Under the pieces are notes generated by a model that saw only the letters and a list, made by a program, of their open reading frames with translations, searched no databases and was not told the origin of the DNA. A stretch of 64,000 bases of DNA. Origin: Acidimicrobiales bacterium (GTDB lineage: Bacteria; Actinomycetota; Acidimicrobiia; Acidimicrobiales; CADCSY01). The position numbers were made by a program, and so were the translations under genes. Below are positions 1,970 to 64,000 of this stretch, piece after piece. The stretch lies in contig DATKDW010000083.1 in the NCBI GenBank assembly GCA_035512495.1, positions 6,045-70,044 on the forward strand. The letters are read 5' to 3'. How positions within the stretch are numbered: position 1 is the first letter of the stretch; each line of letters starts with the position of its first letter.

Positions 1970-1980
1970 CGCCGATCAGC

Positions 1981-3595: not shown

Positions 3596-3622
3596 GTCGG
3601 AGCTGGACCGCACGGAAGGCAC

Positions 3623-4369: not shown

Positions 4370-4382
4370 CGAGACATCCTAG

Positions 4383-4409: not shown

Positions 4410-4440
4410 ATCCGGCTTCCGGTCACGGCAGAGCCGCACA

Positions 4441-4512: not shown

Positions 4513-4517
4513 TACGG

Positions 4518-5222: not shown

Positions 5223-5698
5223 CTCATGACGGTAGCGACGGTGACTTCGCTGGCAGGTGCGCTTTCCGGCCGTTCCGGGATACTGCGGGCACTGAACCGC
5301 AGCCGCACTCGCCCACGGTCGACGTGGGCGACGCCTAGTCGAACCGGACCGCCGCCGACGACGAGGCCAGCCTCGACGACGGGTGATCGTCCGCTCCGAC
5401 AGTTGGGCACGCGGACAAAAGACGCCTTCCGCCGCAGATGTCGTTCAACCTCTGGCGGTGACGAAGTTGAGGAGATGGTTGGGCACAGAGGGCAGGCAGG
5501 CCTCGCTGTGACGCAGCGAACATCCGCACCGAACGCCCGACGCCGCCCGAACACCGTGGAACGGCTCGCTGCAGCCGCCCAGAACGCGCGCTCCAGAACA
5601 CGGTCATGCCGATCGGGCAAGCCGAGCAGCACTGCGCTTCGCCGAAGCGCTGCGTAGCCGGCGATCTGGGCAGGTCACGGCATCGTTTATCGGTGAGA

Positions 5699-6673: not shown

Positions 6674-6710
6674 ACAGAGAGTTCGCTCGTTCCGTTCGGG
6701 CGAATGCCGC

Positions 6711-7346: not shown

Positions 7347-7494
7347 GCGTCGAGTCTGCACCGGATGCGGAGAGCACCTCTCCCCAAGTGCCAGTAATTG
7401 GCACCAGCTATCAGCCGCTCCGAAATCCGTCACCCTTACCCGACCGGGAACTACCTATCGCCGCGTATTCGGTGATCGAGAGCAGACTGACATT

Positions 7495-8028
7495 GTGAGA
7501 AGGGTTGCCGTAGTCGGAGGTCCCGGGTCTGGGAAGTCGACCGTCGCTCGCCTCATCGCCGACCGACTGGACGCCCCGCTGGTCGAGCTCGACGCCCTGT
7601 GGTGGCAGCCGGACTGGGTGCCGACTGACCTCACCCAGTTCCGCAGCGACGTCCGGACCGTCTCCAACACGCCAGCGTGGGTCATCGAGGGCAACTACCT
7701 CGACGAGGTTGGTCGCGACATCGTCTTGCCGCGGGCCGACACGCTCGTGTGGCTCGATCCGCCCCGCCGGATCGCGATCGGTCGCGCCCTTCGTCGGAGC
7801 GTGGGTCGCCTCGTCCGACGCACCGAGCTCTGGGACACGAACCGGCAAGGGATCTCGACGTTGAGCCCAGCCTCTGTCGTGCGGCTGATCAAGAGATGGC
7901 CGGGCTACTCGAAGCTCATCGAGGAGACGCTCGCCAGCGGCCAGTACCCGCACCTGTCCGTGCACCGTTTGCGCAACGACCGAGAGTTCACCGCCTGGCT
8001 CGATCTCGACGGTCACCAGCACAGATAA
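7495..8028 (+). CDS. small P-loop NTPase/kinase (adenylate-kinase / topology-modulation-like)
   Basis: The Walker A motif is VVGGPGSGKSTVARLIA at the N-terminus when started at GTG 7495. The upstream part of ORF 7117 overlaps the DUF402 gene in antisense. Confidence 0.7.
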   Translation: MRRVAVVGGPGSGKSTVARLIADRLDAPLVELDALWWQPDWVPTDLTQFRSDVRTVSNTPAWVIEGNYLDEVGRDIVLPRADTLVWLDPPRRIAIGRALRRSVGRLVRRTELWDTNRQGISTLSPASVVRLIKRWPGYSKLIEETLASGQYPHLSVHRLRNDREFTAWLDLDGHQHR

Positions 8029-8050
8029 CGTCGACCGAGGCCAGCACGGG

Positions 8051-8488
8051 TCAGGTGTTCGGCCCATGTTGGACTGCGAAGAAGGCGTCAGCCGCGTCGA
8101 TCGAGGAGGGTGTGAAGCGGCACATCCTTGTCGTCGGGAGATCTAGCGATGGCACGAACCGCGGATCCCACGCGGATTGGTCGGCGCCGAGGTACCTCGC
8201 AAACGTCCTCATGGCTCGGCCACGGACCACGGGGATGATCTCGGACCTGCCTCGGGCGCGGACGTGGACTACCTCCCCGGTGACGATGTCGCAGACGTCG
8301 ACGACGACTACGAGTCGCTCGCCGGCGCTGACGAGCCGGTGAAGTACGTTCGCGGTGTCTGTGAGCCAGTAGAACGTTCGCTCCTCATACAAGTACCAGA
8401 CGGGGCGCAAGGTCGGTCCATTCGTGGCCACCCTGGCAACGAGTGATCGTTGAAGGAAGGCGTTGATGTCGACCTGGTCCCCTCGCAC
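8051..8488 (-). CDS. pyridoxamine 5'-phosphate oxidase family protein
   Basis: LVARVATNGPTLRPVWYLYEERTFYWLTD is a typical PPOX split-barrel N-terminus. GTG 8488 is chosen because the longer ORF overlaps the next gene. Confidence 0.65.
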   Translation of the reverse strand: MRGDQVDINAFLQRSLVARVATNGPTLRPVWYLYEERTFYWLTDTANVLHRLVSAGERLVVVVDVCDIVTGEVVHVRARGRSEIIPVVRGRAMRTFARYLGADQSAWDPRFVPSLDLPTTRMCRFTPSSIDAADAFFAVQHGPNT

Positions 8489-8552
8489 ACGCGGATCGTC
8501 GCACGCGGCACGCGTGGACCTCAAAGTCGAACGGGTCAGCTCTTGAGGTGGG

Positions 8553-9035
8553 TCACGTCGGTGGGTCGTAGGTCGCCAGCTCTTCGTCCGAGGGCGCCTC
8601 GTAGCTACCGCACCACTCGTCGAGTTCCGCACGAGCGATCGAGCGCGACGCCCACTTCCCTTCGAGGTCGCGTTCGACGATCCGCCTCCACAGCTCCTCA
8701 ACCGGAGCCGTGACATAGCGCAACTCGACGAGGGCGCCGACGGAGCGGGCGGAGTCCCGTAGAGCCTCCCTCTCCTCACGCGCCCAGACACCCCATTCGA
8801 TGACCACGTTCTCTCCAGCAGAAAGGAGTGTGAGAGCGAGCTCCAACTGGAACTGCTCGATGCGGGCCCGGGCGTCGGCGTCCCAGAGGTCGATCCCAGA
8901 CGCCATCATCCAGTCGTCCGGGCACATCCGAGCCGCAGGCATCGACGCTGCCAGTTCAAGAGCGAGACTGGTCTTGCCGCTGCCAGGAAGCCCGGTGATC
9001 ACCACGAGTCGTCCCACGCCTGACCTGCTGTCCAC
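8553..9035 (-). CDS. AAA_33 / zeta-toxin-like P-loop kinase
   Basis: The Walker A motif is VVITGLPGSGKTSLALELA. The protein is about 160 aa. The start is uncertain; several GTG codons occur at 9035-9041. Confidence 0.6.
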   Translation of the reverse strand: MDSRSGVGRLVVITGLPGSGKTSLALELAASMPAARMCPDDWMMASGIDLWDADARARIEQFQLELALTLLSAGENVVIEWGVWAREEREALRDSARSVGALVELRYVTAPVEELWRRIVERDLEGKWASRSIARAELDEWCGSYEAPSDEELATYDPPT

Positions 9036-9292
9036 CACGAGGACCACGATTGCACAGCGGAGGATGCGGGACTCAGGCCCTTGTGCTGGCGCGACGCCGA
9101 GGCGCTCTCCCTCCGACTCGCTCGAGCCCTCGCCACCTTGGCACCGCACCGATCGTGCGTACCGAACGCCGTCGCAGTGACCCGTCAGCGGCCTCGGTGC
9201 CACGTTCGTCCCGCCGGCAATCGGCGCTGCCTGGCAGGCGCCCAAGCCAGAAATCGACGGGCATCTGCTATTGGACCAGGAAAGATAGGGAT

Positions 9293-10321
9293 GTGGCCCC
9301 TGAGTACGTCATCACCAGGCACGACCCTGCCGAGTTCACTGATCAAGAACTTGCTGCGGGCGTTCGTCTCTACAACACCGTTGAGGCTGAGGTGTGGCCC
9401 GAGGATCCGGTCACGCCCGTGGGCGATGCGATCGCCAGATCACGCGCCGTTCCCTCGACGGTTGGGCGTACAGCGTTCCGTGCTTGGTCCGACGGAACGT
9501 TGGTTGGAGAGGTCGAGGTCGCGGTCGACTCAGAACACGACGACAACCCGGACTTGTTGACGTGCCAGATCATCGTCCGAGGCGAATACCGCCGACAGGG
9601 TGTCGGGACGGGTCTGCTGGAACGCGTGACGGAGTTCGCTCGGAGTCATGGTCGCCGACGCCTCGTCGGGAAGACCTACTCGCGAGTTCCCGATGGCGCG
9701 CAGTTCGCTCGACGAGTTGGCGCTGTCCAGAAGAGCGAGTCTCACACCAACCACCTGCCGTTGGCTGAAGTTGACCGAGCACTCTTGGAGTCGTGGGTAC
9801 GCGACGGCTCGCAGCGAGCCCACGGCTATGAGCTGTTGTCATGGGACGACACCGTCCCCGACGAACACCTTGGGGCGTTCCTCGACCTTCTCCTCGTGAT
9901 GAACGATGCCCCGACCGATGACCTCGAACTCAACGACTTCACGATCTCTCCTGGACAGTGGCGAGACGTTCAAGCCCAAGCTGCGGCGGTCGGACAGCAG
10001 CGATGGTTCCTGGTGGCGCGCCGGTCGAGCGACGGCGCGCTCGCCGCACTCCACGATCTCGCATGGGTCCCAGCATTCCCGCAGGTGATGTGGACCGGCT
10101 CCACCGGAGTGCGGCGAGAGGACAGGGGCCACGCTCTCGGCAAGTGGTTGAAGGCATCCATGACACTGCGCGTCCTCGCGGAGCGGCCCGGCGTCTCCGA
10201 CATCCGAACAGACAACGCGACAAGCAACGAAGCCATGCTCTCCATCAACCACGCCATGGGCTATCGGCCCCTGTTCGCGATTCGCCACTGGGAGCTACTG
10301 GTGGAGAAGAGTCAAGCCTAG
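9293..10321 (+). CDS. tandem (two-domain) GNAT acetyltransferase
   Basis: Two GNAT-like halves are present: IIVRGEYRRQGVGTGLLERV, and a C-terminal VRREDRGHALGKWLKA...NEAMLSINHAMGYR. GTG 9293 follows AGGGA. Confidence 0.7.
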   Translation: MAPEYVITRHDPAEFTDQELAAGVRLYNTVEAEVWPEDPVTPVGDAIARSRAVPSTVGRTAFRAWSDGTLVGEVEVAVDSEHDDNPDLLTCQIIVRGEYRRQGVGTGLLERVTEFARSHGRRRLVGKTYSRVPDGAQFARRVGAVQKSESHTNHLPLAEVDRALLESWVRDGSQRAHGYELLSWDDTVPDEHLGAFLDLLLVMNDAPTDDLELNDFTISPGQWRDVQAQAAAVGQQRWFLVARRSSDGALAALHDLAWVPAFPQVMWTGSTGVRREDRGHALGKWLKASMTLRVLAERPGVSDIRTDNATSNEAMLSINHAMGYRPLFAIRHWELLVEKSQA

Positions 10322-10423
10322 CTTTTCCCTTCTCACAACCCGCCGCGAGGGCTTCGCTCGGTCTCGAACCTGCGGCCCTCGCCAGAGACCAGTCCGAGCC
10401 CGTAGCCCCGGCACCGAACCAAG

Positions 10424-10538
10424 CCCCGACGTGCCGATCACCAGCGAGCCTCCGGCCGGGACCGCTCCGGGGAGCGACCGCTCCGATCATCCACTCCCGC
10501 TGGCCTCGACGGTGCGCGAGCCGGCAATCGGCGCGGGT
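10424..10538 (-). repeat. intergenic repeat family, copy E (reverse orientation relative to copies A and B)
   Basis: The reverse complement ends in GATCGGCACGTCGGGG and contains CCAGCGGGAGTGGATGATCGGAGCGG, matching A and B block-wise. It is about 85% identical by eye to copy F over about 95 nt. Confidence 0.6.
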
Positions 10539-10599
10539 CCGAGTCACCAGCGCGCATGGCGCGCGTGACAGCGTCGGGCCCGACGGGCACCATGCGGTC

Positions 10600-11139
10600 A
10601 TGGCTCATCTGGTCGTACTCGTCGGGCCGGTCGGCGCCGGCAAGAGCACGGTCGCCGGTCGGCTTGCGCAGCTTGTGAGGCAGAACGGCATGACCGCGGC
10701 AGACGTCGACATGGACGACGTCGCATTCATGCAGTGCGGCGGCGACGATGTGGAGGAGTTCTGGCGGCGGGCGGCAGTCGCGACGGCCGGGCTCATTCGG
10801 GCATGGTTCGACGCCGGCGTCGACGTTGTCATCACACACGGCCCGTTCTTCGAGTCCGGTGGGTTCGAGATCCTCCGGCACGCGCAACCGGTCGAAGTCG
10901 ACGTCCACCACATTCTGCTCCGCGTCACAGCCGAGGTCGCCATCACCCGTGTCCAGAGCGATCCGACCCGAGGCATTTCGAAGGATCCGACGTTTGTCCG
11001 GGACTCGAACGATCGGCTGCGAGGGCTCAGCGACCTGCTCCCGGTCATGAACCTCGAGCTCGACACGACTCAACGCGGCCCCGACGAGATCGCAGCCGAC
11101 GTGATGGCTGCCGTCACCGCTCCGACGCAACACGCCTGA
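10600..11139 (+). CDS. small P-loop kinase (AAA_33 / chloramphenicol-phosphotransferase-like size)
   Basis: MAHLVVLVGPVGAGKSTVAGRLA is a Walker A motif at the N-terminus. The rest of ORF 9958.. overlaps the previous gene and repeat E. Confidence 0.7.
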   Translation: MAHLVVLVGPVGAGKSTVAGRLAQLVRQNGMTAADVDMDDVAFMQCGGDDVEEFWRRAAVATAGLIRAWFDAGVDVVITHGPFFESGGFEILRHAQPVEVDVHHILLRVTAEVAITRVQSDPTRGISKDPTFVRDSNDRLRGLSDLLPVMNLELDTTQRGPDEIAADVMAAVTAPTQHA

Positions 11140-11238
11140 GTGCCAGCGGGCTGCCGCCGGGACCGCTCCGGGGGAGACCGCTCCGATCATCCAGTCGCGC
11201 TGGCCGTGACGGCGCGCGAGCCGGCAATCGGCGCGCCG
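11139..11238 (-). repeat. intergenic repeat family, copy F (direct repeat of copy E)
   Basis: CCAGCGGGCTGCCGCCGGGACCGCTCCGGGGGAGACCGCTCCGATCATCCAGTCGCGCTGGCCGTGACGGCGCGCGAGCCGGCAATCGGCGCG matches 10441-10535. It starts at the kinase stop codon. Confidence 0.65.
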
Positions 11239-11386
11239 GGAGCTGTTCGACGAGCTGAACGTTCTGCTGCGCTCAAGGGAGTTGCCTGGCATCGACTCGC
11301 ACATGAGGAATAGGTAACGGCCGGGCCGCGGCGCGTGCTCCTGGGACGGCGCCGCCGACGGGTGCTCCTACGGACCGCTGATCGGG

Positions 11387-11743
11387 CTAGCGGAAGAAGC
11401 CCCCGAATGGGCCGAAGTAGGTGGCCCCGAAGCCGTCGAGGACGCCCTTGACCTCGTCGCTCGGCGTTCCGAACACCTGCAGACTCACCGGATCGACGCA
11501 TGCCAGGAACCGCTCCGCGAAGTTGGCTCCGAAGTTCCCGAGGTGCACCATCGTCGCGGCGGAATCGGAGTATCGCTCGTAGATCGCGAGCTTGCCTTCG
11601 GCTTCATCGATGAACCACTCGTAACCCAAGGCGCCCGACTCGTCCTTCGTAGACGACACCATGTCGGCCATGAGCGACCGAAGGTTGTCGAGCTCGCCGT
11701 TCTTCACAGCGACCTGAATCACCCACGAGACTTCGTCTGCCAT
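11387..11743 (-). CDS. ABM-domain (antibiotic biosynthesis monooxygenase-like) protein
   Basis: 118 aa, with WVIQVAVKNGELDNLRSLMADMV...YEWFIDEAEGKLAIYERYSDSAATMVH, the typical ferredoxin-like ABM pattern. Confidence 0.65.
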   Translation of the reverse strand: MADEVSWVIQVAVKNGELDNLRSLMADMVSSTKDESGALGYEWFIDEAEGKLAIYERYSDSAATMVHLGNFGANFAERFLACVDPVSLQVFGTPSDEVKGVLDGFGATYFGPFGGFFR

Positions 11744-11990
11744 TGCAAACCTCCTCGACTGTCTGGGTCAGTCGATTCCCACCCGACGGAACAAGACAGG
11801 ACCCGAGCGACTGCCTCGCCTTAGATCCGGGCTGGGAACACGGATCGCAACGCAACCTAGCCGACGCACCTCTCCTCGCACCGAGAACGCAGACTGCTTC
11901 CTTCCGCGAGCGCGACCGATCGACGGTTCCAGCAGCTCCGCGCCGAGGCCGCACCGAGCGGGCAAGCAGAACGCGCCGACCGATCCCGGC

Positions 11991-12170
11991 GAGGCCGCGG
12001 AACAGATCCTGTTCGTTGGCGACAACCTGCACGACGACATCGGCGGAGCAACCAGGTCCGGCCTGCCGTCAGTCCACATGGATCGAGACGGGTCCTGCCA
12101 GGCTGACGACCACGCCGACATCGCGAGTTGCGTCAGAGACCTCAGATCGCTGCTGGCGTGGCTTGGCTGA
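11991..12170 (+). pseudogene. HAD-superfamily hydrolase, C-terminal remnant
   Basis: A frame not listed in the ORF track reads EAAEQILFVGDNLHDDIGGATRSGLPSVHMDRDGS...LAWLG*. This is HAD motif IV (VGDxxxDIxGA). No start codon or motifs I-III were recognisable upstream. Confidence 0.5.
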
Positions 12171-12285
12171 GCAGCACCGATCACCCGCGCAATGGACCCG
12201 GGCCTCGCGTGCTCCAATCCGTACCGATCGGCGCGTAGCGCGCCGCCGCCCACGAGATGGCATCTGACACCAGAGGGATGGCGGC

Positions 12286-12582
12286 TCAGGCGTCAGGGGC
12301 GGGCTGCCGGAGTGCGTGGCTATCGAGCTCCATTTGGTAGATGCGCTTGAAGTCCTCGATTGCTGCCAACGCTCGCTTCCCATGCGGGCTTGCCGCCATC
12401 TCGCCCTCCTGTCCTTTCACGGGTTCGAAAGAGTGCAGGACGATCTTTTCGAGGAGCTGTCCGAGGGTGAGTCCTTCGAGCTCGGCGAGCGCCTTCAGGA
12501 CCTTCACCATGCTCCGCTCCATCCGGACGCCGATTTGGACGCGATCGACGCGCGTCGGAGCATTCCGTTGGGTCGGGACCAT
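12286..12582 (-). CDS. ribbon-helix-helix (CopG/antitoxin-like) small protein
   Basis: RVQIGVRMERSMVKVLKALAELEGLTLGQLLEKIVL has the beta-strand plus two-helix RHH pattern. 98 aa. Confidence 0.5.
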   Translation of the reverse strand: MVPTQRNAPTRVDRVQIGVRMERSMVKVLKALAELEGLTLGQLLEKIVLHSFEPVKGQEGEMAASPHGKRALAAIEDFKRIYQMELDSHALRQPAPDA

Positions 12583-12622
12583 GGGACCAAGTTACCGTAG
12601 TCCCACCGACCTAGGAGAGACC

Positions 12623-13447
12623 ATGTCCGATCCGTACGCGCTCGCGGTGCACAGCTCCTTCGACGAAGTCGAACCGCAGTTCCATGCCGTGCTGGAAGCG
12701 AGCCTTGACCCCCGTGGTCCAGATGCGCTCTTCGACATCGTCGCTGGGCTCGGACTCGAGAGCGGCGCGGTCGTGCTCGACGCCGGGTGCGGCCGCGGGC
12801 GACAGTCACTGGAGCTGGCGCGGCGATTCGGCTTCGACGTGCTCGGCGTCGACCCCGTCGACCGGCACGCGCCAATCGACAAACAGCTCGCCGAGCGACC
12901 CCTGACGGCCGGATCGGTGCGCTTCACCGAGGGGAGATTCGAGCAGCTGCCAGTCGAGGACTCCTCGATCGACCTGATCTTCTGCCGTGACTCGATCATG
13001 TTCGGTGACCTCGCCGTGACGGCAACCGAGTTCCACCGCGTCTTGCGTCCCGGCGGCCGAGGTCTCGTCTACCTCGTCCTCACCGGTCCACTGATGAGCG
13101 AGCCCGAGGCCGACCACTTCGACCATCTCATGCGCGGCCGAACGCTTCGCCCGGCCGAGATCGACGCAGCACTTGAACGCAACGGTCTCACTGTCAACGA
13201 CCGCATCGACTACAGCGGCGAGTGGGCGGAACGATCCCAGGAGCAGGACGGAGAACCTGCTCGACGACTCCTGTTCGCATCTCGACTACTGAGAAGGCCC
13301 GATCACTACATCCAGAAGTTCGGACAAGACCACTACGACATCATGCTCGGCGACTGCCTCTGGCACGTCTACCGCATGATCGGGAGACTCTCCGGCTACG
13401 CCTGCACCTTCACGCGACCGTTGGCTGCTTCTCCGCCGCCCGAGTAG
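12623..13447 (+). CDS. class I SAM-dependent methyltransferase
   Basis: ATG 12623 is preceded by AGGAGA. Motif I is VVLDAGCGRGRQSLELA, followed by IDLIFCRDSIMF and LRPGGRGLV. Confidence 0.85.
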   Translation: MSDPYALAVHSSFDEVEPQFHAVLEASLDPRGPDALFDIVAGLGLESGAVVLDAGCGRGRQSLELARRFGFDVLGVDPVDRHAPIDKQLAERPLTAGSVRFTEGRFEQLPVEDSSIDLIFCRDSIMFGDLAVTATEFHRVLRPGGRGLVYLVLTGPLMSEPEADHFDHLMRGRTLRPAEIDAALERNGLTVNDRIDYSGEWAERSQEQDGEPARRLLFASRLLRRPDHYIQKFGQDHYDIMLGDCLWHVYRMIGRLSGYACTFTRPLAASPPPE

Positions 13448-13505
13448 AGCCGCCATTGATCGCCAAGGTCGGCGAGACCGAGCAACTGATGCCGCACCGA
13501 GCGCG

Positions 13506-13625
13506 CGCTCCATAATCCGCATCGGCTCCTGCACTTGACCCGAGCAGAACGGCGCTTCTCCAGCGGCGATCGGGACGGCGGGTGCTAGCCAGGCGAGTCC
13601 TCGCGATCGGCACTTCGGCTGCGGG
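13506..13625 (+). repeat. intergenic repeat family, copy B (long form, with the 13-mer)
   Basis: CGCTCCATAATCC is followed 28 nt later by GAACGGCGCTTCTCCAGCGGCGATCGGGACGG...GCGATCGGCACTTCGGCTGCGGG. The CGGCAC end faces the stop (13642) of a minus-strand ORF. Confidence 0.6.
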
Positions 13626-13641
13626 ACCGAGATCAGTCGAT

Positions 13642-14022
13642 CTAGATGAGATGGCCCTCAAAGAACTCGGAGACGTTGTCGAAGCCGGCGGCGGTCAACA
13701 TGCGCTCCTCCTGGGGTGCTGGGTCGGGTGCGGCATCCCGGGTGACGACCGCCAGCACAGCACCTGCGGCTTCGGCCTCAGCTACCGCTCGCACTGCCAC
13801 CTCCGAGTCGATGTTTCCGAGGATGCAGACCGGTCCGCCAGGCGCATAGACCGGCGGCGCAGGCACGAGCATCGCCGTGACCCCTGCGAGCTCCACCTCG
13901 GCAAAACCGACCTCCGCTGGCTGGGAAGGGTCCAGAGGACACACCCACCAACGCGAGACAACGGTCAGTCCGAGGTCCGACAGCATCTGACGCTTTGCGG
14001 TGTCCTGGCGCGCGGTCACCAC
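13642..14022 (-). CDS. hypothetical protein (possibly the chimeric 3' part of a decayed gene)
   Basis: A 126-aa ORF with no recognisable motif. It overlaps the out-of-frame tail of the APH-like ORF 13778..14374. Confidence 0.3.
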   Translation of the reverse strand: MVTARQDTAKRQMLSDLGLTVVSRWWVCPLDPSQPAEVGFAEVELAGVTAMLVPAPPVYAPGGPVCILGNIDSEVAVRAVAEAEAAGAVLAVVTRDAAPDPAPQEERMLTAAGFDNVSEFFEGHLI

Positions 14023-14058
14023 CCGGACTCGGACCGGTCGGGCGAGGGGCTACGGGCC

Positions 14059-14374
14059 AGGGGAAGGGGTACGCCTCGCAAGGGTTGCCCATGGCGACTG
14101 CCTCGGGGATGGCCAGCGGCAACTGGGGGCGTGCCCAGTCGAGCCAGCGGTGGTGGGCTTCGATCGCCTCGTAGCTCGACGCGAAGCTCGGCGCCCGAGG
14201 AAGCCGTAGGACCAAGTCATGACCGAGCCGGAAGATGGCGTTCACGGTCCCGGACGACCGGAGACGCCGCAGCGGCAGCCCTCGCCAGCGAGGGAACTGG
14301 GTGTCGACGAGAGAGCGCGCGAGGGAGTCGTCGATGGGAACCTCGTCGCCGTGGAGGGGAGTGTGATCGGTCAT
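14059..14374 (-). pseudogene. APH-family phosphotransferase, N-terminal lobe only (frameshifted or truncated)
   Basis: The first 105 or so aa of ORF 13778..14374 (SGTVNAIFRLGHDLVLRLPR...LPLAIPEAVAMGNPCEAYPFPW) look like an APH N-lobe. After that the frame turns to G/R/P-rich nonsense, and no HxDLxxxN catalytic loop appears in any frame. Confidence 0.45.
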
Positions 14375-14396
14375 AGACTGGCCTACAGCACCGGTG

Positions 14397-14855
14397 TCAC
14401 CGAACAGGGCTCCCGGCGCTCTCGACCGTTCTGAGGAAGGTCAGGCTCGGCCAATCGATCGTGAGTCCCTCGCCATCATCAAGCGCCACCCACCGACCGG
14501 CGTAGAAGTTGAGAACCTCCGCACACGGGGTCGGTTCCCCGTGCGTCCAGCGGCGAAGGTGCTCTCCGACCACGTGCTCAGCCCTGTCGATGCCGCCGCG
14601 GTTCTGCGCGATCACCGCGCGACCGGGCTTGGTCCGCTTGCGACCGGTGCTCCTGAAGGTCGCCCCCGCGGCGACGCTGCCCCAGAAGCCATCATCGATG
14701 CCGACGGTACCTTCGACCAGCAACTGGAGGAGGTCGTGCGGCATGCCGCCGCGGCCGAGGGCCATCGGGGTGCCGGGGATCCTGGTTCGCTTCCCTCGAA
14801 CTGCCTCCCAGTACGAAAGGCGGTCCTCCACCATCTTGAAGAAGGTGATGCGCAC
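14397..14855 (-). CDS. hypothetical protein
   Basis: A 152-aa ORF of normal composition with a GTG start. No family was recognised. Confidence 0.45.
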   Translation of the reverse strand: MRITFFKMVEDRLSYWEAVRGKRTRIPGTPMALGRGGMPHDLLQLLVEGTVGIDDGFWGSVAAGATFRSTGRKRTKPGRAVIAQNRGGIDRAEHVVGEHLRRWTHGEPTPCAEVLNFYAGRWVALDDGEGLTIDWPSLTFLRTVESAGSPVR

Positions 14856-14901
14856 GAACCGCCACCGTAGGAGCGACTACCTATCACCGACACCAAATAT
14901 C

Positions 14902-14952
14902 GAACGCGGCCGCCTCTCCGGCGAGAAGGATCGGCGCGTCGCGAGCGGTCAA
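14902..14952 (+). repeat. intergenic repeat family, short copy I
   Basis: GAACGCGGCCGCCTCTCCGGCGAGAAGGATCGGCGCGTCGCGAGCGG shares the GAACGSSGC...CTCC.GCG...GATCGGC blocks. It lies 3' of the GT2 gene (stop 14961). Confidence 0.4.
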
Positions 14953-14960
14953 GTCTTCTG

Positions 14961-15749
14961 TCAGGTCGGAGGTGACTCGCAAGCGGCGATCAGAGACGGC
15001 CCGTCGAGCGCTCCCACCTCAGATCGGAAGCGGGTCAGGATCGACTCGTATCTCTCGCGGGCACCTGGGATGCCTCCGAAGTGGGGTGCGTGATGCTCGA
15101 GGGCCCACTCGTAGAGCGGGTGAGAGCGATCATCGCTGGTCACGACGCCCGCGAGGCTTGCCCTGCCCCGGTGAATGAGATACCCGTCGGCTGCGAAAGG
15201 GAAGTTCTCGGCAGCAAGGCCAGCCTGCTGGGCGGCTGCGAGGAGCTCGAACGACGGGTCACCATCGTCCCGGAAGGTGGGTGCACCAGGGTGCCAGATC
15301 TGCATGGGATCGATGAGCAGGCTGTACAGCTCCAAGCGGTGCATCTCATGCCATGGATCCCAGTGGCGCTCGCCGACGATCGCGGCGCCGCTCCCAGCGA
15401 CGGCCAGTGCCTCACGGAGCACGTCGCCACGGCGTATGACCACATCGGAGTCGAGGATCCACACGTAGCGGGGCGGTGTCGGTTGCTCGACAAGCTCTCC
15501 CATCGCCTGGTTCAGGGCTGGGCCGTGGTGAGTGTTCTCGTCGTTGGCGAGCAGTCGGCAGAGGCCTGCCTCGGACGCTTCGGCGAGCAGCCGACCTGAC
15601 CCGTCGCTCGAGCCGTTGTCCACCACAACCACCTCGACGTCATCGTCGAGGACGCGGTGTAGCGACCAAAGAAGCAGCGCGGTGAACTCGATGGTGTTGA
15701 ACGACACGGTGACGACGCTGACCCGGCCTTGACCGATGCTCCCGGACAC
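14961..15749 (-). CDS. glycosyltransferase family 2
   Basis: VSVVTVSFNTIEFTALLLWSL...VVVVDNGSSDGS is the classic GT2 N-terminus. A DSD motif occurs in WILDSDVV. Confidence 0.8.
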   Translation of the reverse strand: MSGSIGQGRVSVVTVSFNTIEFTALLLWSLHRVLDDDVEVVVVDNGSSDGSGRLLAEASEAGLCRLLANDENTHHGPALNQAMGELVEQPTPPRYVWILDSDVVIRRGDVLREALAVAGSGAAIVGERHWDPWHEMHRLELYSLLIDPMQIWHPGAPTFRDDGDPSFELLAAAQQAGLAAENFPFAADGYLIHRGRASLAGVVTSDDRSHPLYEWALEHHAPHFGGIPGARERYESILTRFRSEVGALDGPSLIAACESPPT

Positions 15750-15823
15750 AGAACGAGTATCGACGACGATCGCACCTATCGGGCACTCAGTATCCCCACG
15801 AGCTGGCGCATCGCCTCCGCCCC

Positions 15824-15880
15824 GATCGGCGCATCTCCAGCGTCGATCAGGACGGATGGCGGCTAGGAATCCTGGGCCAG
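15824..15880 (+). repeat. intergenic repeat family, copy C (not adjacent to a gene 3' end)
   Basis: GATCGGCGCATCTCCAGCGTCGATCAGGACGGATGGCGGCTAGG matches the 5' half of copy B (GGCGCTTCTCCAGCGGCGATCGGGACGGCGGGTGCTAGCC). Confidence 0.5.
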
Positions 15881-15997
15881 CCGCGTGTCTGAGTGATGGT
15901 CTCGAGCACGCCGGAGCGCTCTGCCCGCTCAGCAGATCGACGTGCGGATCCGTCGGTGCGAGACTGGGACGACACGGCCATGGATCAGGAGCGCACC

Positions 15998-16393
15998 ATG
16001 TCGGGCCTCGCCATCATCACCGAAGCGTGCATCGGCGTGAAGGACCGTGCGTGTGTCGACGTGTGCCCGGTCCAGTGCATCTACGAGCTCGATCAGGCCA
16101 AGGGTGTGTTGTTCTCCGAGGACGAAGCCGGCAGCGGCGAGATCGAGAACACCCACGCGCCCGACCCGGACTCCATCGGGGTGTTCGGGGACAGCCTGCT
16201 GTACGTGAACCTGGAGGAGTGCACGTCGTGCACCGCCTGCTACCAACCCGACGTCTGCCCTGTCGGTGCGATCTATACCGAGGAAGCCGTGCCCGACGGC
16301 ACCGATCCCAAGGCCTACAACGCCGAGGACCCGCACAAGGGCCACGACCACACCTTCTTCATTCAGCTCAGCCGCGACGTCTTCGCCGACTGA
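15998..16393 (+). CDS. ferredoxin, two Fe-S cluster motifs separated by an unusually long insertion
   Basis: MSGLAIITEACIGVKDRACVDVCPVQCIY carries the Cx7Cx3CP motif. About 50 aa later comes CTSCTACYQPDVCPVGAIY. ATG 15980 is an alternative start. Confidence 0.75.
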   Translation: MSGLAIITEACIGVKDRACVDVCPVQCIYELDQAKGVLFSEDEAGSGEIENTHAPDPDSIGVFGDSLLYVNLEECTSCTACYQPDVCPVGAIYTEEAVPDGTDPKAYNAEDPHKGHDHTFFIQLSRDVFAD

Positions 16394-16688
16394 CGGTGCC
16401 GGCCCGCCATGAGCGGAAACCGGGCAGCCTGGGGGCGGTGTGCCCCGAAGCGAGCGCGATCGCCGGCATCCGATGCGTCGTGTCGACCCCCCTTGAGACC
16501 GAGAGCAGCAACCTCGACGAGGTGTCGCTGTCGCCTCCAGCTGGCCCACGGCTTGACCGTGACGGAAGACGGGCGTTGATCACGGGCCTCCTGTCGGCGA
16601 TGCCAGGCCACTCGGCGGGCCGTCTGAGCAGGACGCCACACGCCTCTGGGCGATGTCTACCGATCGCGGAAGCCTCAAATGCGGACGC

Positions 16689-16745
16689 CTATCGGCGGCA
16701 CCGATCTCCAGAGCGCGTGGTCAGCACGCCGGCACTGCCGCGGTG
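16689..16745 (+). repeat. intergenic repeat family, degenerate copy D
   Basis: CTATCGGCGGCACCGATCTCCAGAGCGCG...CGCCGGCACTGCCGCGG lies 3' of the minus-strand relE (stop 16766), in the same gene-relative orientation as copies A, B and I. Confidence 0.4.
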
Positions 16746-16765
16746 AGCCTCTCCGCGCCGACTGG

Positions 16766-17029
16766 TCAGGATCTGTAGACGTCTCGGCGGTGACCCACGC
16801 TCACCACGAGCACGACGAGGCGACGGTCGTGCACCTCGTAGATGATCCGATAGTCACCGACCCGAACTCGGTAGGCGCGCTCCTCGCCCTTGAGGGCCAC
16901 ACACCCCGGCGGACGAGGCTCGTCTGCCAGCAGGTCGATCGCAGCTCGGATCCGCTGCTGCTCACGCCTGGGCAAACGGGCAAGCGACTTCACCGCTCGA
17001 CGCGCGATGTGGACCTCATAGCGGCTCAC
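16766..17029 (-). CDS. relE: type II toxin, RelE/ParE superfamily
   Basis: 87 aa, with YRVRVGDYRIIYEVHDRRLVVLVVSVGHRRDVY. It overlaps the upstream antitoxin gene by 4 bp. Confidence 0.85.
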   Translation of the reverse strand: MSRYEVHIARRAVKSLARLPRREQQRIRAAIDLLADEPRPPGCVALKGEERAYRVRVGDYRIIYEVHDRRLVVLVVSVGHRRDVYRS

Positions 17030-25778: not shown

Positions 25779-26321
25779 TCAGCAGCGGCTGGGCGCGGTG
25801 CCCGGACCGGGCCCGGCCCGTGCAGGCAGCTCACCGCCGGTGGTGGTCGGCGGCGATGATCGGGTCCGCGCACCGTCCGGCGAAGGCTGCGGTGTGGGTG
25901 CGAAGCGTCGTTCGGCGAGGGGGTCGTACTTCGCCATGCGCTTGGCGACGCTTCGGCGTAGGGGTTGGACGGTGGTGGTCACCGCGGTCCCCCACTGGTT
26001 GAAGAACGTCAGGGTGGCGTTGGGGTCGCCGCTGATGCGCCACCCGTGGTTGTGGATGTTGTTGTGGCAGGTCCAGCACAACGCCACCAAGTTGTCGAGG
26101 TCCGTCGGTCCGCCTCGTGACCAGTGCCAGAGGTGGTGGATCTGGTGGATGGGCCCGCCGCAGCAGCGGCAGCGACCGTCACGCCGCGTCACCAGCCGGC
26201 GCAGCCAGCGGGGAACCACCCGCTCGGCGCGCCCGACCCCGACCGCTTCGCCGTTGATCGTCATCACGAACTGCACCCGACCGCCGCACGCGAACCGCAA
26301 GAGCACGCAGTTGTGCTGCAC
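25779..26321 (-). CDS. HNH endonuclease domain protein, corresponding only to the C-terminal part of the actinobacterial DUF222-HNH family
   Basis: RRLVTRRDGRCRCCGGPIHQIHHLWHWSRGGPTDLDNLVALCWTCHNNIHNHGW is an HNH motif. The usual 250-aa or so DUF222 N-terminal region is absent. The tail is P/T/G-rich. Confidence 0.6.
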   Translation of the reverse strand: MQHNCVLLRFACGGRVQFVMTINGEAVGVGRAERVVPRWLRRLVTRRDGRCRCCGGPIHQIHHLWHWSRGGPTDLDNLVALCWTCHNNIHNHGWRISGDPNATLTFFNQWGTAVTTTVQPLRRSVAKRMAKYDPLAERRFAPTPQPSPDGARTRSSPPTTTGGELPARAGPGPGTAPSRC

Positions 26322-60913: not shown

Positions 60914-62419
60914 TCAGACCTCGTCGAGGTGTCCCTGGCGGAGCTCCTCTTCGCGCTGCTTCTGCTCCTGCATCGCCGTGAGCACGGCCTCGAAGATCTT
61001 GGCGGTGTCGGCCTCGAGGTGCTTGCGGGCCGAGAACAGCAGGGCGGCGCCGAGGAACACCGGAAAGCTGATGATCACGAAGGCGGTGCGCAGGTTGTCG
61101 TCGTAGGCGTTCGACAGGAACGACACGACCAGCGGGGCGGCCGCCTGGCCGAAGAGCACCGAGGCCAGGTTGAAGGCGCCGAACCCGGCGCCGCGGAGGT
61201 TGGCGGGCACCGCGTCGGACAGGCCGGCCCGAAGCGCCGGGATCGACATGGTGAGCGCGAAGATCCCCACCAGCTGGAGCAGGTAGGTGGGCAGCACCGC
61301 CAGGCGTGCGTACGACACCATGAAGAAGAGGTTCCCGATGAAGATGCACATGGCAGGGATGGCCATGCGCCCGCCCTGGATCCGGGTGACGTACTTGTCG
61401 GCGACCTTGCCGCCGTAGAGGACGCCGGGAATCCCGCCGAGGATGAGCAGGGAGCCGACGAGGAGCTGGGCCGTGCCACCCGCGACGCCCAGCTGGCGCT
61501 CGTAGAACGACGGGAGCCACACGCTGATGCCGGTGACGGTGAACAGCAGCACCCCGACGCCGACGAGGGCGTAGCGCATGGTGCGGATCCGCGAGATCGT
61601 CTTCATGTCGGCGACCAGCCCGCGGGCCATCTCCCGGAAGAACACCCGGAGGCCCTCGTCGAGCAAGTTCGGGCCGAGGCCGTCGTCGTCCTCGTCGCTC
61701 TCGCTGACCCCGGCGTGCATGCGGTCGGCGGCGCCGCGCCTGGGCTCGCGGAGGCGGTAGACCATGAAGGCCACGACGACGCTCGGGCTGCCGACGATCA
61801 GGAACGCCCAGCGCCAGCCGAGGGTGGCGCCGACGAGGCCACCGAGGCCGAGTCCGATGCCCATGCCGACCATGCCCATGACCTGCTGGATGGAGAACGC
61901 CTTGCCGCGCTCCTCGAGCGGGTAGTAGTCGGCGACCAGGCTGTTGGCCGACGGCTCGGTGATCGCCTGGCCGAAGCCGAGCGCCGAGCGCACCGCCACG
62001 AGGAAGCCGTAGTTCGGTGCCGCTGCGGTGATGGCGGTGATGCCCGACCACAGCAACATCGTGTGGCCCACCGTCCGGGTGCGGTTCCAGCGGTCGGCGA
62101 GGTAGCCGGCGGGGATGGTGATGAGGCCGTTCACCAGGATGAAGCAGCTGGCGAGCAGGCCGAGCTGGGGGTCGGAGAGCCCGAACTCGGCGCGCAGCTG
62201 CTCGAGCACGCCGCGCAGGATGCTCTGGTCGATCTGGTCGGTGAGGACCACGAAGCCGAGGACCCACATCGGCCACGAGTCGGAGCCCTTTCGGGTGGCC
62301 GAGGGCGGGATCACCGGAGAGGAGTCGGCCGATGCCGCCGCCGCCGACGCCGCCGGATCGGGCACCGCGCCCAGCGTCCTCGGATCGGGGACCGCGCTCG
62401 TCTCGACGTCATCGCTCAT
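60914..62419 (-). CDS. MFS transporter (Spinster-like)
   Basis: PAGYLADRWNRTR and multiple TM segments. ATG 62419 is preceded by AAGGGAAG, though the ORF is open to GTG 62491. It lies 78 bp downstream of selD on the same strand. Confidence 0.8.
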   Translation of the reverse strand: MSDDVETSAVPDPRTLGAVPDPAASAAAASADSSPVIPPSATRKGSDSWPMWVLGFVVLTDQIDQSILRGVLEQLRAEFGLSDPQLGLLASCFILVNGLITIPAGYLADRWNRTRTVGHTMLLWSGITAITAAAPNYGFLVAVRSALGFGQAITEPSANSLVADYYPLEERGKAFSIQQVMGMVGMGIGLGLGGLVGATLGWRWAFLIVGSPSVVVAFMVYRLREPRRGAADRMHAGVSESDEDDDGLGPNLLDEGLRVFFREMARGLVADMKTISRIRTMRYALVGVGVLLFTVTGISVWLPSFYERQLGVAGGTAQLLVGSLLILGGIPGVLYGGKVADKYVTRIQGGRMAIPAMCIFIGNLFFMVSYARLAVLPTYLLQLVGIFALTMSIPALRAGLSDAVPANLRGAGFGAFNLASVLFGQAAAPLVVSFLSNAYDDNLRTAFVIISFPVFLGAALLFSARKHLEADTAKIFEAVLTAMQEQKQREEELRQGHLDEV

Positions 62420-62497
62420 CCACTTCCCTTTCGGCGCCGTAACGCTTTTCTCCTGCTTCTCAGGGAGATGATCAGGCGTGGCATCGGTCACCTCGGC

Positions 62498-63535
62498 TCA
62501 GGTGAGCCGGATCCGTCCCTCGCCGGCCCTGGCCGCGCCGACCACGGCGGCGGCGTGGCCGCTCGAACGTAGCGTCTCCACCATCCCCGGGGCGGCCTCG
62601 GGCGCCAGCCCCACCAGCAGCCCACCCGACGTCTGGGCGTCGGCCAGGAGGGTGACGGTGACATCGTCGACGCCACCACGGTCGAGGCGGTCCTCGACCC
62701 ACTCGAGGTTCCGTCCCGTGCCCCCCGGCACCACGCCGGCCTCGGCCAGGGCGCGGGCTCCGGGCAGGAGGGGCACCGCCGGGCTGTCGATGACCACGTC
62801 GACCCCCGACTCGTCGGCCATGCGCCGGAGGTGGCCGAGGAGGCCGAAGCCCGTCACGTCGGTGGCGCCGGTGGCGCCGGCCTCGACCGCCAGGCGGGCG
62901 GCCACGTCGTTGAGGCGCACCATCGAGGCCACCGCCGCTTCGACCGAGGCGGGGTCGGCCCCGTCGCGCTTGATGGCGGTGGTGATCACCCCGGTCCCGA
63001 GCGCCTTGGTGAGGACCAGGGCGTCGCCGGGTCGCAGCCCGGCGTTGGTGAGGAGGTGGTCGGGGTGGACCTCGCCCACCACGGCCAGGCCGTACTTGGG
63101 CTCGGGGTCGTCGACGGTGTGACCGCCCGCGATGACGAAGCCGGCCGCGGACGCCACGTCGGCGCCGCCCGCCAGCACCTCACCGAGCAGGTCGGTGGAC
63201 AGCTCGTCGACGTTCCACCCCACGAGGTTCAGCGCCAGCAGCGGCCGGCCGCCCATGGCGTAGACGTCGGAGACGGCGTTGGTGGCGGCGATGCGGCCCC
63301 AGGTGCGCGCGTCGTCGACCACCGGCGTGATGAAGTCGGCGGTCACCACCAGGGCGCGGTCGTCGGCGACGCGCCAGACGGCGGCGTCGTCACCCGTGGC
63401 GGCGCCCACGAGGAGGTCGGGGTGGTCGATCGGGGCCATGCGGCGCAGCACCTGCGCCAGCTCGCCGGGGGCGAGCTTGCCCGCTCAACCAGCCCCGTGG
63501 CTGAACTCGGTCAGCCGACGGCTGTGGCGGTCCAC
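62498..63535 (-). CDS. selD: selenide, water dikinase (selenophosphate synthetase) with an in-frame UGA (predicted selenocysteine) at codon 17
   Basis: The ORF track starts at 63451. The same frame upstream reads VDRHSRRLTEFSHGAG-TGA-AGKLAPGELAQVLRRM, matching the E. coli SelD N-terminus (RLTQYSHGAGCGCKISP). The TGA (63485-63487) falls at the catalytic Cys17 position. GTG 63535 follows GGAGGGGAG. Total length is 1038 nt in frame. Confidence 0.8.
63455..63487 (-). promoter_or_regulatory. candidate bacterial SECIS hairpin immediately 3' of the selD UGA
   Basis: The mRNA reads UGA GCG GGC AAG CUC GCC CCC GGC GAG CUG GCG. CAAGCUCGCC pairs with GGCGAGCUGG (8 contiguous bp, one mismatch, then 2 more bp) around a CCC loop. 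Confidence 0.45.
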
Positions 63536-63630
63536 GCTCCCCTCCCCTCGTCCGGACGGCGTGCTGGCGGTCGCCCCGGATGCTAACGGTGCCGGACGCG
63601 AGGCGAGCCAGCCTGGGTAGGGTCGCTCGC

Positions 63631-64000
63631 ATGGCCGCCAGCACCGTCCAGGTCGACGTCCACCTCGGACCCGCCGACCTCACCGCCGCCCTCCTCGAGG
63701 AGGCCCGGGTGGGGCTGGGGTCCCAGCCGAAGGCCCTCTCCCCCAAGTGGCTCTACGACGAGCGGGGCTGCGACCTGTTCGACCAGATCACCCGCCTCGA
63801 CGAGTACTACCCCTTCCGTCGCGAGCGCTCAATCCTCCAGGCCCGGGCCGCCACGATCGCCGAGGCCACCGGCGCCGACACCCTTGTCGAGCTGGGCTCG
63901 GGGACCTCGGAGAAGACCCGGCTGCTGCTCGACGCGCTGGCCGGCGCCGGCACCCTCGAGCGCTTCGTGCCCTTCGACGTGAGCGAGCCCACGCTGCGGG
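63631..64000 (+). CDS. egtD: L-histidine N-alpha-methyltransferase (hercynine synthase), N-terminal 123 codons; continues beyond the window
   Basis: Not in the ORF track because there is no stop in the window. The translation ...LSPKWLYDERGCDLFDQITRLDEYYPFRRERSIL...ADTLVELGSGTSEKTRLLLDAL...FVPFDVSE closely matches my recollection of mycobacterial EgtD. Confidence 0.8.
   Translation, partial: MAASTVQVDVHLGPADLTAALLEEARVGLGSQPKALSPKWLYDERGCDLFDQITRLDEYYPFRRERSILQARAATIAEATGADTLVELGSGTSEKTRLLLDALAGAGTLERFVPFDVSEPTLR

Follow-up and report, generated by a model that had tools for sequence, protein, structure and literature searches.

The gene for selenide,water dikinase, selD, is known in a selenocysteine-encoding form that standard gene callers routinely cut short. 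A gene probably of this kind lies in a 64-kb stretch of DNA (the window) from a high-GC actinobacterium close to uncultured Actinomycetota and Acidimicrobiia, whose best-matching related locus and protein show 76% and 81% identity, respectively. Its reading frame contains an in-frame TGA, and the question is whether this codon ends translation, marks a decayed or misread gene, or specifies selenocysteine (Sec), as an earlier note on this DNA had proposed. Related loci are referred to below by their L numbers.

The selD Gene and Its Start

The full-length coding sequence, defined by its translation and profile matches, occupies positions 62498 to 63535 on the reverse strand. Its translation, V-DRHSRRLTEFSHGAG-*-AGKLAPGELAQVL..., has a single internal stop, TGA, and comprises 345 residues counting Sec, with the terminal stop codon at 62500-62498. 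The in-frame upstream extension described in the earlier note thus holds: 345 codons can be read from the GTG, interrupted only by the TGA at 63487-63485. The extended protein exceeds the cutoffs of both SelD family profiles to which it was aligned, scoring 384.4 bits against TIGR00476 (NCBIfam; cutoff, 125) and 368.5 bits against NF002098 (cutoff, 299). Position 1 of the TIGR00476 profile corresponds to residue 7, which makes the segment before the TGA part of the SelD domain. A phmmer search against the PDB aligned the protein collinearly with Escherichia coli SelD (PDB entry 3u0o; 260 bits; residues 3 to 334), with the motifs DDAAV, TADF, GRIAATNAxSD, and TDVTGFGLLGH all retained, and homologues of the gene carry the Pfam domains PF00586 and PF02769. 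This region encodes SelD, with selenide,water dikinase as the predicted activity.

The GTG at 63533-63535 was assigned as the start codon, as there is no ATG, GTG, or TTG in the selD frame upstream of it, reading back to position 63640, a stretch that already reaches into the start of the divergently oriented neighbor. The syntenic relative L081 has an ATG at the matching codon (M-DRHSRRLTEF...). The strong Shine-Dalgarno sequence mentioned in the earlier note is readily seen as GGAGGGGAG at 63545-63537, with a GGAGG core (63545-63541) and a 5-nt spacer to the GTG; it would be the putative ribosome-binding site, and L081 has GGAGAGGAGG in the same position.

An In-Frame TGA at the Catalytic Position

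The TGA (63485-63487, reverse strand) falls on residue 17, the predicted Sec position. In the phmmer alignment, the segment RLTEFSHGAG[U]AGKLAP is matched to RLTQYSHGAGCGCKISP of 3u0o with identical numbering, so that U corresponds to the E. coli Cys17 and K20 to Lys20, as the earlier note had claimed for the catalytic position. The loop reads HGAG-U-AG-K, compared to HGAG-C-GC-K in the E. coli enzyme, and retains Lys20. Among 80 related genomic loci, the residue-17 codon is TGA in 63 and TGC or TGT in 13; the TGA-bearing loci span Acidimicrobiia, Pseudonocardia, and Gemmatimonadota, and the close relatives L081 and L085 have TGA at this codon as well. All 50 full-length proteins among the 120 closest database homologues have Cys at this position.

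Among the relatives, both flanks of the TGA encode conserved peptide sequence. In the 10 codons upstream of it, pairwise comparisons yield 8578 synonymous versus 2098 nonsynonymous differences, and the residues R, L, T, S, H, G, A, and G are invariant in all 64 Sec-type genes. These ten codons are under purifying selection.

A separate feature of the loop is the residue equivalent to the E. coli Cys19, which is Gly in the window selD. This is a private change, departing from 62 of the 64 Sec-type genes and from all 50 full-length Cys-type homologues; the SelD structure from Aquifex aeolicus has Ala at the equivalent position.

Two Covarying Hairpins Downstream of the UGA

The 71-nt segment that follows the UGA folds with a free energy of -42 kcal/mol (z = -3.2), a value equaled by 1 of 200 shuffled sequences. 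It contains two hairpins, delineated by folding and covariation, both on the reverse strand: H1 (63459-63477), with an 8-bp stem, a CCC loop, and a free energy of -13.2 kcal/mol, and H2 (63442-63458), with a 7-bp stem, a GUG loop (63451-63449), and a free energy of -11.3 kcal/mol. H1 begins 7 nt past the UGA and H2 abuts it without a linker, which places the H2 loop 33 nt past the UGA, close to the upper end of the consensus range. RNAalifold independently predicts both hairpins.

Over H1 and H2 together, 94.5% of the base-pair cells are paired in the 64 Sec-type genes versus 66.7% in 13 Cys-type genes, and slid controls are paired in 29 to 43% of cells. Compensatory changes occur in 8 of the 15 pairs, a level of covariation reached by none of 500 shuffles. 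The two hairpins contribute about equally: H1 is 95.2% paired in Sec-type and 67.3% in Cys-type genes, with double changes in 4 of 8 pairs, and H2 is 93.7% and 65.9% paired, respectively, with double changes in 4 of 7 pairs. Identity at third codon positions in the Sec-type genes is 0.83 at paired versus 0.52 at unpaired sites, compared to 0.65 versus 0.62 in the Cys-type genes, and the minimum free energy of the segment is -20.6 kcal/mol in the former versus -12.9 kcal/mol in the latter (p = 6e-8). L034 and L069, two Cys-type loci whose nearest relatives are Sec-type, have a visibly degraded hairpin structure. H1 and H2 are conserved with covariation only in Sec-type genes.

The published criteria for a bacterial SECIS element (bSECIS; PMC13188914) specify an apical loop of 3 to 9 nt with a G in loop positions 1 or 2 followed by U, a spacing of 16 to 37 nt, and a minimum free energy of -7.5 kcal/mol or lower. 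H2 agrees with all four (GUG loop, 7 bp, 33 nt, -11.3 kcal/mol), and its loop residues G43 and U44 are invariant in 64 of 64 Sec-type sequences, whereas H1 fails the rules for loop G and spacing. The earlier note, which had placed a single stable SECIS hairpin a few nucleotides past the TGA, was right about the presence of structure there, but this structure consists of two adjacent hairpins, of which only the second fits the SECIS consensus. H2 is the likely SelB-binding hairpin. H1 is under Sec-specific selection too and probably acts as a compact spacer that positions H2 at the right distance from the UGA.

A third helix enclosing H1 and H2 (alignment columns 12 to 15 with 58 to 61) was considered and rejected as a general feature because only 48% of its cells are paired across the alignment; in the window, it would couple the private Cys19-to-Gly codon to a compensating GCA-to-GCC change. 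Rfam searches of the whole window at the gathering threshold matched no family to the selD hairpin element, and a permissive search of positions 63380 to 63560 returned only chance-level matches to miRNA and sRNA families. Because Rfam has no such family, the tandem-hairpin alignment, with its 64 sequences and covariation, could seed a covariance model.

Decoding of the UGA and Alternative Explanations

The conservation of the TGA, the constraint on its flanks, and the Sec-specific covarying hairpins all favor the reading of this gene as a Sec-type selD. We consider it very probable, judging from these sequence comparisons, that the gene is intact and has Sec at residue 17. Translation would initiate at GTG 63535, and with the UGA in the ribosomal A site, the SECIS just downstream in the coding sequence would recruit SelB with Sec-tRNA(Sec), leading to Sec insertion in place of termination. 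H2, with its conserved G-U loop, would serve as the SelB site and H1 as the spacer, and the resulting selenide,water dikinase would have 345 residues and carry G-A-G-U-A-G-K as its loop.

Gene prediction programs see this locus differently. The ORF tool lists only a truncated 317-aa ORF starting at GTG 63451, missing the TGA-spanning gene as the earlier note had said, and its prediction that standard gene callers would truncate selD is borne out by the public pipelines, which called 70 of the 120 closest homologues without the catalytic loop. Such calls could be taken to mean that the TGA is a genuine stop and that a functional truncated SelD starts at GTG 63451 or ATG 63439. That product, however, would lack the entire glycine-rich loop, including the equivalents of Cys17 (or Sec) and Lys20, both of which are essential according to mutagenesis of the E. 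coli enzyme. Furthermore, the purifying selection on the codons upstream of the TGA argues against a start downstream of it, and GTG 63451 is a conserved Val codon whose GUG forms the H2 loop. Annotation artifacts would be expected to have scattered starts, which is what the truncated homologues show in their called starts, and we regard a functional truncated enzyme as extremely improbable. A lone in-frame stop is also the usual signature of a pseudogene or of a sequencing error, here for TGC, but the same TGA is found in 63 independent genomes and in L081 to L085, apart from the TGA the gene is intact and keeps every conserved motif, and the RNA structure is selected only in TGA-bearing genes and degraded in the Cys-type L034 and L069. 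The chance of either is close to negligible.

It could also be argued that neither SelB nor Sec takes part in reading through the UGA and that Cys or Trp, for instance, is inserted by near-cognate decoding stimulated by the hairpins. Stable structure past a UGA can promote readthrough, as has been proposed for the SRE and HRE elements of eukaryotic SPS genes (PMC4561486), and the Sec machinery is not seen in the 64-kb window. Against this stand the G-U apical loop of H2, a signature of SelB-dependent SECIS elements that is invariant in all 64 genes, and the presence of selA, selB, or selC next to selD in relatives with the same element. We know of no bacterial precedent for hairpin-stimulated UGA readthrough of this kind that is independent of SelB and Sec, and find it very improbable here.

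Search for the Sec Machinery in the Window and in Related Loci

Searches of the 64-kb window revealed no selA, selB, or tRNA-Sec gene. In Acidimicrobiia-type relatives, these genes are likewise not found within 10 kb of selD, and their absence from the window is therefore uninformative rather than negative. In five Pseudonocardia-type loci whose selD is of the Sec type, by contrast, one or more of the selA, selB, and tRNA-Sec genes are adjacent to it; selA and selB adjoin Sec-type selD in L046, L053, L055, and L057, and the tRNA-Sec gene does so in L046, L055, and L065. Several ORFs in L001 (downstream of selD) and in L055 (flanking selD) that by size could have been selA or selB proved to encode other products, among them a VTT-domain protein, a DUF885 protein, and an amidase. 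With the Sec reading, selA, selB, and selC would be encoded elsewhere in the source genome.

A generic scan of the window for further TGA-interrupted genes gave a weak negative, as its positive control, selD, was missed in both versions of the scan, making it uninformative for N-terminal Sec sites; the relaxed version picked up only neighboring same-frame genes or antisense frames.

Neighboring Genes and a Possible Selenoneine Link

The gene downstream of selD (60914-62491, reverse strand) encodes an MFS transporter (PF07690, 182 bits) with weak similarity to OATP. It starts 6 nt past the selD stop codon, with no terminator-like site found between the two, and these genes are probably cotranscribed. 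A consensus scan for promoters and terminators around selD found nothing, although such a scan has low power in an actinobacterium with 70% GC. On the other side, divergent from selD, lies the 5' part of a gene for an EgtD-family histidine N-alpha-methyltransferase (63631-64000, forward strand; PF10017, 124 bits), cut by the window end. In the syntenic loci L081 to L084, the gene is complete, encodes 325 aa, and has a TetR gene after it, and the order of a divergent egtD followed by selD-MFS is common to the window and these four loci.

This arrangement resembles that of SenC, the selenophosphate synthetase of sen clusters, in that a selenophosphate synthetase gene adjoins an EgtD-family gene. 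Some sen clusters carry a colocalized egtD (bioRxiv 10.1101/2022.04.13.486033), and this optional feature is present in the window. It is conceivable, and compatible with Sec decoding, that this SelD mainly feeds a selenoneine-type pathway, in the role of SenC, coupled to hercynine synthesis by the EgtD-like neighbor and to the MFS transporter. Apart from the conserved gene order, this would be consistent with the selD-egtB-egtD arrangement in L020 and with the neighbors of Sec-type selD in L003 and L022, namely, a SenB-like gene (PDB 8fbx, 146 to 158 bits) and a SenA/OvsA-like gene (203 to 270 bits), close homologues of which also adjoin selD in L012 and L024. However, such neighbors are found in just a handful of about 65 lineages, and the L081 egtD-like gene stands alone, with TetR and methylmalonyl-CoA mutase genes coming next. 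The L020 EgtB, an ordinary type II enzyme (452 bits versus 87 bits for SenA), was rejected as evidence for a sen cluster. When the SenB-like proteins from L003 and L022 were used as tblastn queries, neither the window nor L081 to L085 gave a match. No senA homologue was found either, whether across the 64 kb of the window or up to 10 kb from selD in L081 to L085, and none is present among the called genes and precomputed Pfam assignments of L081 for 10 kb to each side of selD. A sen cluster is operationally defined by an egtB homologue, TIGR04348, and selD within about 5 kb; with senA and senB missing near the window selD and in its syntenic relatives, the locus falls outside this definition, and a sen cluster in the window was rejected. 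We consider the SenC role quite unlikely.

Comparison with Known Systems and Implications

Sec-containing SelD, which the earlier note described as known in some bacteria, accounts for 19% of prokaryotic SelD genes, with Sec always at this position (PMC4561486), and only one bacterial selenoprotein family is more widespread than SelD (PMC5029168; PMC13188914). The window selD belongs to this well-known kind. It shares with these genes the TIGR00476 family, the position of Sec, a predicted SECIS in the coding sequence, and truncation by gene callers, but differs from them in having two hairpins rather than a single stem-loop and, with U-A-G-K in the loop, in missing the second Cys. The similarity to E. 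coli SelD includes Lys20 and the conserved motifs; the differences are the UGA for Cys17, the Gly for Cys19, and the SECIS, which the E. coli gene does not need.

The archetype of the bacterial SECIS is that of E. coli fdhF. In its loop type, N-G-U-N-N, H2 resembles the SECIS of the FdhA-type selenoprotein gene in L059 (6-bp stem, loop GGUCU), as well as the consensus of the bSECISearch model. What sets the window selD apart from this consensus is an extra 8-bp hairpin, H1, which separates H2 from the UGA and is as conserved and covarying as H2 itself. On a broader scale, the tandem H1 and H2 might constitute a distinct class of SECIS in the selD genes of Acidimicrobiia, Pseudonocardia, and Gemmatimonadota, and/or the Sec-type SelDs might double as SenC in selenoneine- or ovoselenol-type metabolism, a combined proposal that we view as unlikely. 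If the SenC part were true, a Sec-dependent enzyme would gate small-molecule selenium metabolism.

The current understanding of Sec decoding is unchanged by these results. Their main consequence is for annotation: the gene is properly described as encoding a full-length 345-residue selenoprotein, as opposed to a fragment of 313 to 317 residues without the catalytic loop. Annotations of uncultured Actinomycetota and Gemmatimonadota make this truncation error systematically, which would bias surveys of selenium use. For the organism itself, this selD is the mark of a probable selenocysteine user, in whose genome further UGA-interrupted genes are worth seeking.

Reading frame and catalytic codon of selD

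The selenide,water dikinase gene selD (62498..63535, minus strand) begins with a GTG codon at 63535-63533, preceded in the sequence by the Shine-Dalgarno-like GGAGGGGAG (63545-63537, minus strand), and ends with a stop codon at 62500-62498. The only break in this frame is a TGA at 63487-63485, which has 16 sense codons before it and 328 after it; the ORF lister returned only a 317-aa ORF starting at GTG 63451. The earlier note was thus correct in describing a TGA-interrupted selD that the ORF track had overlooked, as well as the Shine-Dalgarno sequence ahead of its start. It had also suggested aligning the 345-residue translation to SelD families; with Cys put at the TGA, this translation scores 384 bits against the NCBIfam SelD profile TIGR00476 (cutoff, 125 bits). 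Profile position 1 falls on residue 7, so the part before the TGA lies within the SelD domain. In a phmmer comparison with PDB, residues 3 to 334 are collinear with Escherichia coli SelD (3u0o) in identical numbering, RLTEFSHGAG[U]AGKLAP pairing with RLTQYSHGAGCGCKISP, which places the TGA opposite Cys17 of the SelD loop, as had been proposed. Lys20 and the DDAAV, TADF, GRIAATNAxSD, and TDVTGFGLLGH motifs are conserved.

The loop reads U-A-G-K, with GGC (Gly) at codon 19 (63479-63481, minus strand), the equivalent of E. coli Cys19. This residue is Cys in 62 of 64 genes with TGA at the catalytic codon (Sec type) and in all 50 full-length proteins with Cys there (Cys type). Since the relatives L081 and L085 have TGC at codon 19, the T-to-G change from TGC to GGC is recent and private to the window. 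Mutagenesis has shown Cys19 of E. coli SelD to be dispensable, and the Gly19 enzyme is expected to be active. In the SelD structure from Aquifex aeolicus (2yye), this position is occupied by Ala.

Conservation of the TGA codon

A set of 5.8 billion proteins supplied the 120 closest SelD homologues; 50 of these are complete, all with the GAGC[AG]CK motif. The other 70 have been called at 305 to 331 aa, with scattered start positions and without the catalytic loop, which bears out the prediction that gene callers truncate Sec-type selD. Misannotation of such genes is a recognized problem (PMC4561486), and in the public protein sets of uncultured Actinomycetota and Gemmatimonadota it is systematic.

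In 80 related loci from reference genomes of Acidimicrobiia, other Actinomycetota, Pseudonocardia, and Gemmatimonadota (best identity, 76%), the catalytic codon is TGA in 63, TGC in 11, and TGT in 2, with 4 loci unmatched by the search motif. The closest homologue (81% identity) is found on four metagenome contigs, L081 to L084, that are syntenic with the window; L081 has ATG in place of GTG 63535, followed by the shared DRHSRRLTEFSHGAG-TGA. A further relative, L085, likewise carries the TGA. Immediately 5' of the TGA, ten codons specify R-L-T-x-[FY]-S-H-G-A-G in the 64 Sec-type sequences; 8 of these residues never vary, and third positions are unconstrained. In pairwise comparisons of this stretch, synonymous codon changes outnumber non-synonymous ones (8578 versus 2098), an excess indicating that it is translated in the selD frame.

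These data bear on the other possible readings of the TGA. Neither a sequencing error nor a pseudogene can account for its presence in the related loci and in L081 and L085, taken with the coding constraint. A true start downstream of the TGA, yielding a functional truncated enzyme, was the alternative named in the earlier note; it is contradicted by the homologue pattern, namely the constraint on the upstream codons and the retention of the TGA in relatives. The UGA very probably encodes Sec.

A tandem-hairpin SECIS element

A stable hairpin had been reported just 3' of the TGA, where a SECIS should be. The 71 nt beginning just before the UGA do fold stably (-42 kcal/mol; z = -3.2), but into two hairpins: H1 (63477-63459, minus strand; 8-bp stem, CCC loop, -13.2 kcal/mol) and H2 (63458-63442, minus strand; 7-bp stem, GUG loop, -11.3 kcal/mol), only the latter of which fits the bacterial SECIS model. 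Folding of each locus gave two abutting hairpins in the equivalent segment of all Sec-type genes. RNAalifold recovers both from an ungapped 64-sequence alignment, leaving the innermost H2 pair open. In this alignment, 94.5% of Sec-type cells are paired, falling to 29 to 43% when partners are slid by 1 to 3 columns; 8 of 15 pairs show changes on both sides, and none of 500 shuffles matched the observed covariation. Some compensatory changes alter the protein: A-P-G versus G-P-A in H1 (GCC/GGC to GGC/GCC) and R to S or G in H2 (GGCGC/GCGCC to GGCUC/GAGCC or GGCCC/GGGCC). A third helix enclosing both hairpins was rejected as not conserved (48% paired). Rfam has no model for a tandem-hairpin SECIS.

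Pairing in the same columns drops to 66.7% of cells in the 13 Cys-type orthologues. Third-codon identity is 0.83 at paired and 0.52 at unpaired positions in Sec-type genes, versus 0.65 and 0.62 in Cys-type genes, and the minimum free energy of the 36-nt segment is -20.6 ± 2.9 versus -12.9 ± 2.9 kcal/mol (Mann-Whitney p = 6e-8). Two Cys-type loci whose nearest loci are Sec type, L034 (2272-2337) and L069 (10025-10090), retain partial H1 remnants and a broken H2, which would fit a recent Sec-to-Cys conversion after which the SECIS decayed. They resemble the SECIS-like remnants reported 3' of Cys codons where such conversions have occurred (PMC1794560).

The bacterial SECIS model specifies a 3- to 9-nt apical loop on a 4- to 16-bp stem, a G at loop position 1 or 2 with G or U as the usual next base, a UGA-to-loop distance of 16 to 37 nt, and a minimum free energy of at most -7.5 kcal/mol (PMC13188914). 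H2 agrees in all four respects (loop GUG, spacing 33 nt, -11.3 kcal/mol), whereas H1 departs in two (no G in the loop, spacing 15 nt). The H2 loop reads N-G-U-N-N, and its G43 and U44 columns are invariant in all 64 sequences. In Gemmatimonadota the selD H2 loop is GGUCU, identical to the loop of a 6-bp hairpin that follows the in-frame TGA (motif CNRT-U-HAPS) of an FdhA-type molybdopterin oxidoreductase gene in locus L059 (9354-11972, minus strand). On these grounds we propose that H2 is the SelB-binding element and H1 a compact spacer. Folded on itself and abutting H2 with no linker, H1 would bring H2 nearer the UGA, to a through-space distance probably much below 26 nt. H1 is clearly under Sec-specific selection (95% paired versus 67% in Cys-type genes). 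The triplet that the ORF lister took for the start of the truncated gene, GTG 63449-63451 (minus strand), encodes a conserved Val and makes up the GUG apical loop of H2.

Gene neighborhood and Sec machinery

An MFS transporter gene with weak OATP-like similarity starts 6 nt past the selD stop, with no terminator-like site found between the two. Divergent from selD and cut by the window end is a gene for a PF10017 (EgtD-family) histidine methyltransferase. This arrangement (60914-64000; 8833-12425 in L081) recurs in L082 to L084, and all five share a divergent egtD-like gene followed by selD-MFS-USP-acyl-CoA dehydrogenase-citrate synthase-carboxyltransferase-LysR. In L081 to L084 the egtD-like gene is stand-alone (325 aa), next to a TetR gene; no egtB, egtC, egtE, senA, or senB was found near it in this arrangement.

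From about 17 kb on, the window carries housekeeping genes (glutamate synthase, aconitase, Ddl, Mur ligase, TrkAH) and a mycothiol-type nitroreductase gene that fits an actinobacterial origin. Positions 1-17000 differ in GC content (64 to 67% versus 71 to 75% elsewhere) and third-position GC (about 0.66 to 0.86 versus about 0.9). This segment is rich in GNAT acetyltransferases and SAM methyltransferases, also encodes a sulfotransferase, an APH-type phosphotransferase, and a GT2 glycosyltransferase, and has the appearance of an accessory region or of one gained by horizontal transfer. An HNH endonuclease-domain gene (25779-26321, minus strand), which lies where GC falls locally to 68% (26-28 kb) and is flanked by small ORFs without family matches, may be a mobile-element remnant.

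The 64-kb window contains no tRNA genes and no tblastn matches to the SelA and SelB proteins of L059 (identified by Pfam), and the 55 likely genes and alternative ORFs scanned with Pfam yielded nothing selenium-related. This absence carries no information and does not count as negative evidence, because none of the Acidimicrobiia-type loci has the Sec machinery within 10 kb of selD. Among Pseudonocardia-type loci, Sec-type selD adjoins selA and selB in L046, L053, L055, and L057 and tRNA-Sec in L046, L055, and L065. An L059 ORF with Fer2/Fer4/Molybdop_Fe4S4 domains (6328-7692), whose end abuts tRNA-Sec, could be a gene fragment or an oddity of the assembly.

Selenometabolite clusters in relatives

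In L003 and L022, Sec-type selD adjoins an EgtB-superfamily gene that best matches the selenoxide synthase OvsA (233 to 270 bits; 203 to 211 against the selenoneine synthase SenA). The glycosyltransferase next to it matches the selenosugar synthase SenB/TIGR04348 (146 to 158 bits; PDB 8fbx/8jjn), versus about 25 bits for generic GT1 enzymes. Close homologues of both genes adjoin selD in L012 and L024. The SenB-like, SenA/OvsA-like, and Sec-type selD genes span 7560-11014 in L003, about 7613-11014 in L012, 4320-10972 in L022, and 5981-12633 in L024. bioRxiv 10.1101/2022.04.13.486033 defines a sen cluster operationally as an egtB homologue, TIGR04348, and selD within about 5 kb, and in the passages covered makes no mention of a Sec-containing SenC. 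Judged by sequence similarity, this combination is present beside Sec-type selD in all four loci, which would be complete selenoneine- or ovoselenol-type trios whose SenC equivalent is a predicted selenoprotein. The window has only the optional egtD feature of such clusters; as neither senA nor senB was found within reach there or in L081 to L085, it is not a sen cluster.

L020 has the gene order selD(Sec)-egtB-egtD. Its EgtB was rejected as a SenA, scoring as an ordinary type II EgtB (452 bits against Chloracidobacterium EgtB structures versus 87 against SenA). These genes are followed, on one strand and tightly packed (10001-16012), by genes for an ABC ATPase, a class-V aminotransferase (cysteine desulfurase or Sec-lyase type), and a NifU-like protein, so that an ergothioneine pair and Suf-like genes lie immediately 3' of Sec-type selD.

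Sec is encoded in about 19% of prokaryotic SelD genes, invariably at one position (PMC4561486). Such SelD proteins are textbook knowledge, and the window gene is very probably one more case; the reading of the earlier note is supported. The points of note are the well-supported tandem-hairpin SECIS, which lies outside the Rfam models, how widely selD is annotated as truncated in this clade, and the relatives in which sen-type clusters adjoin Sec-type selD.
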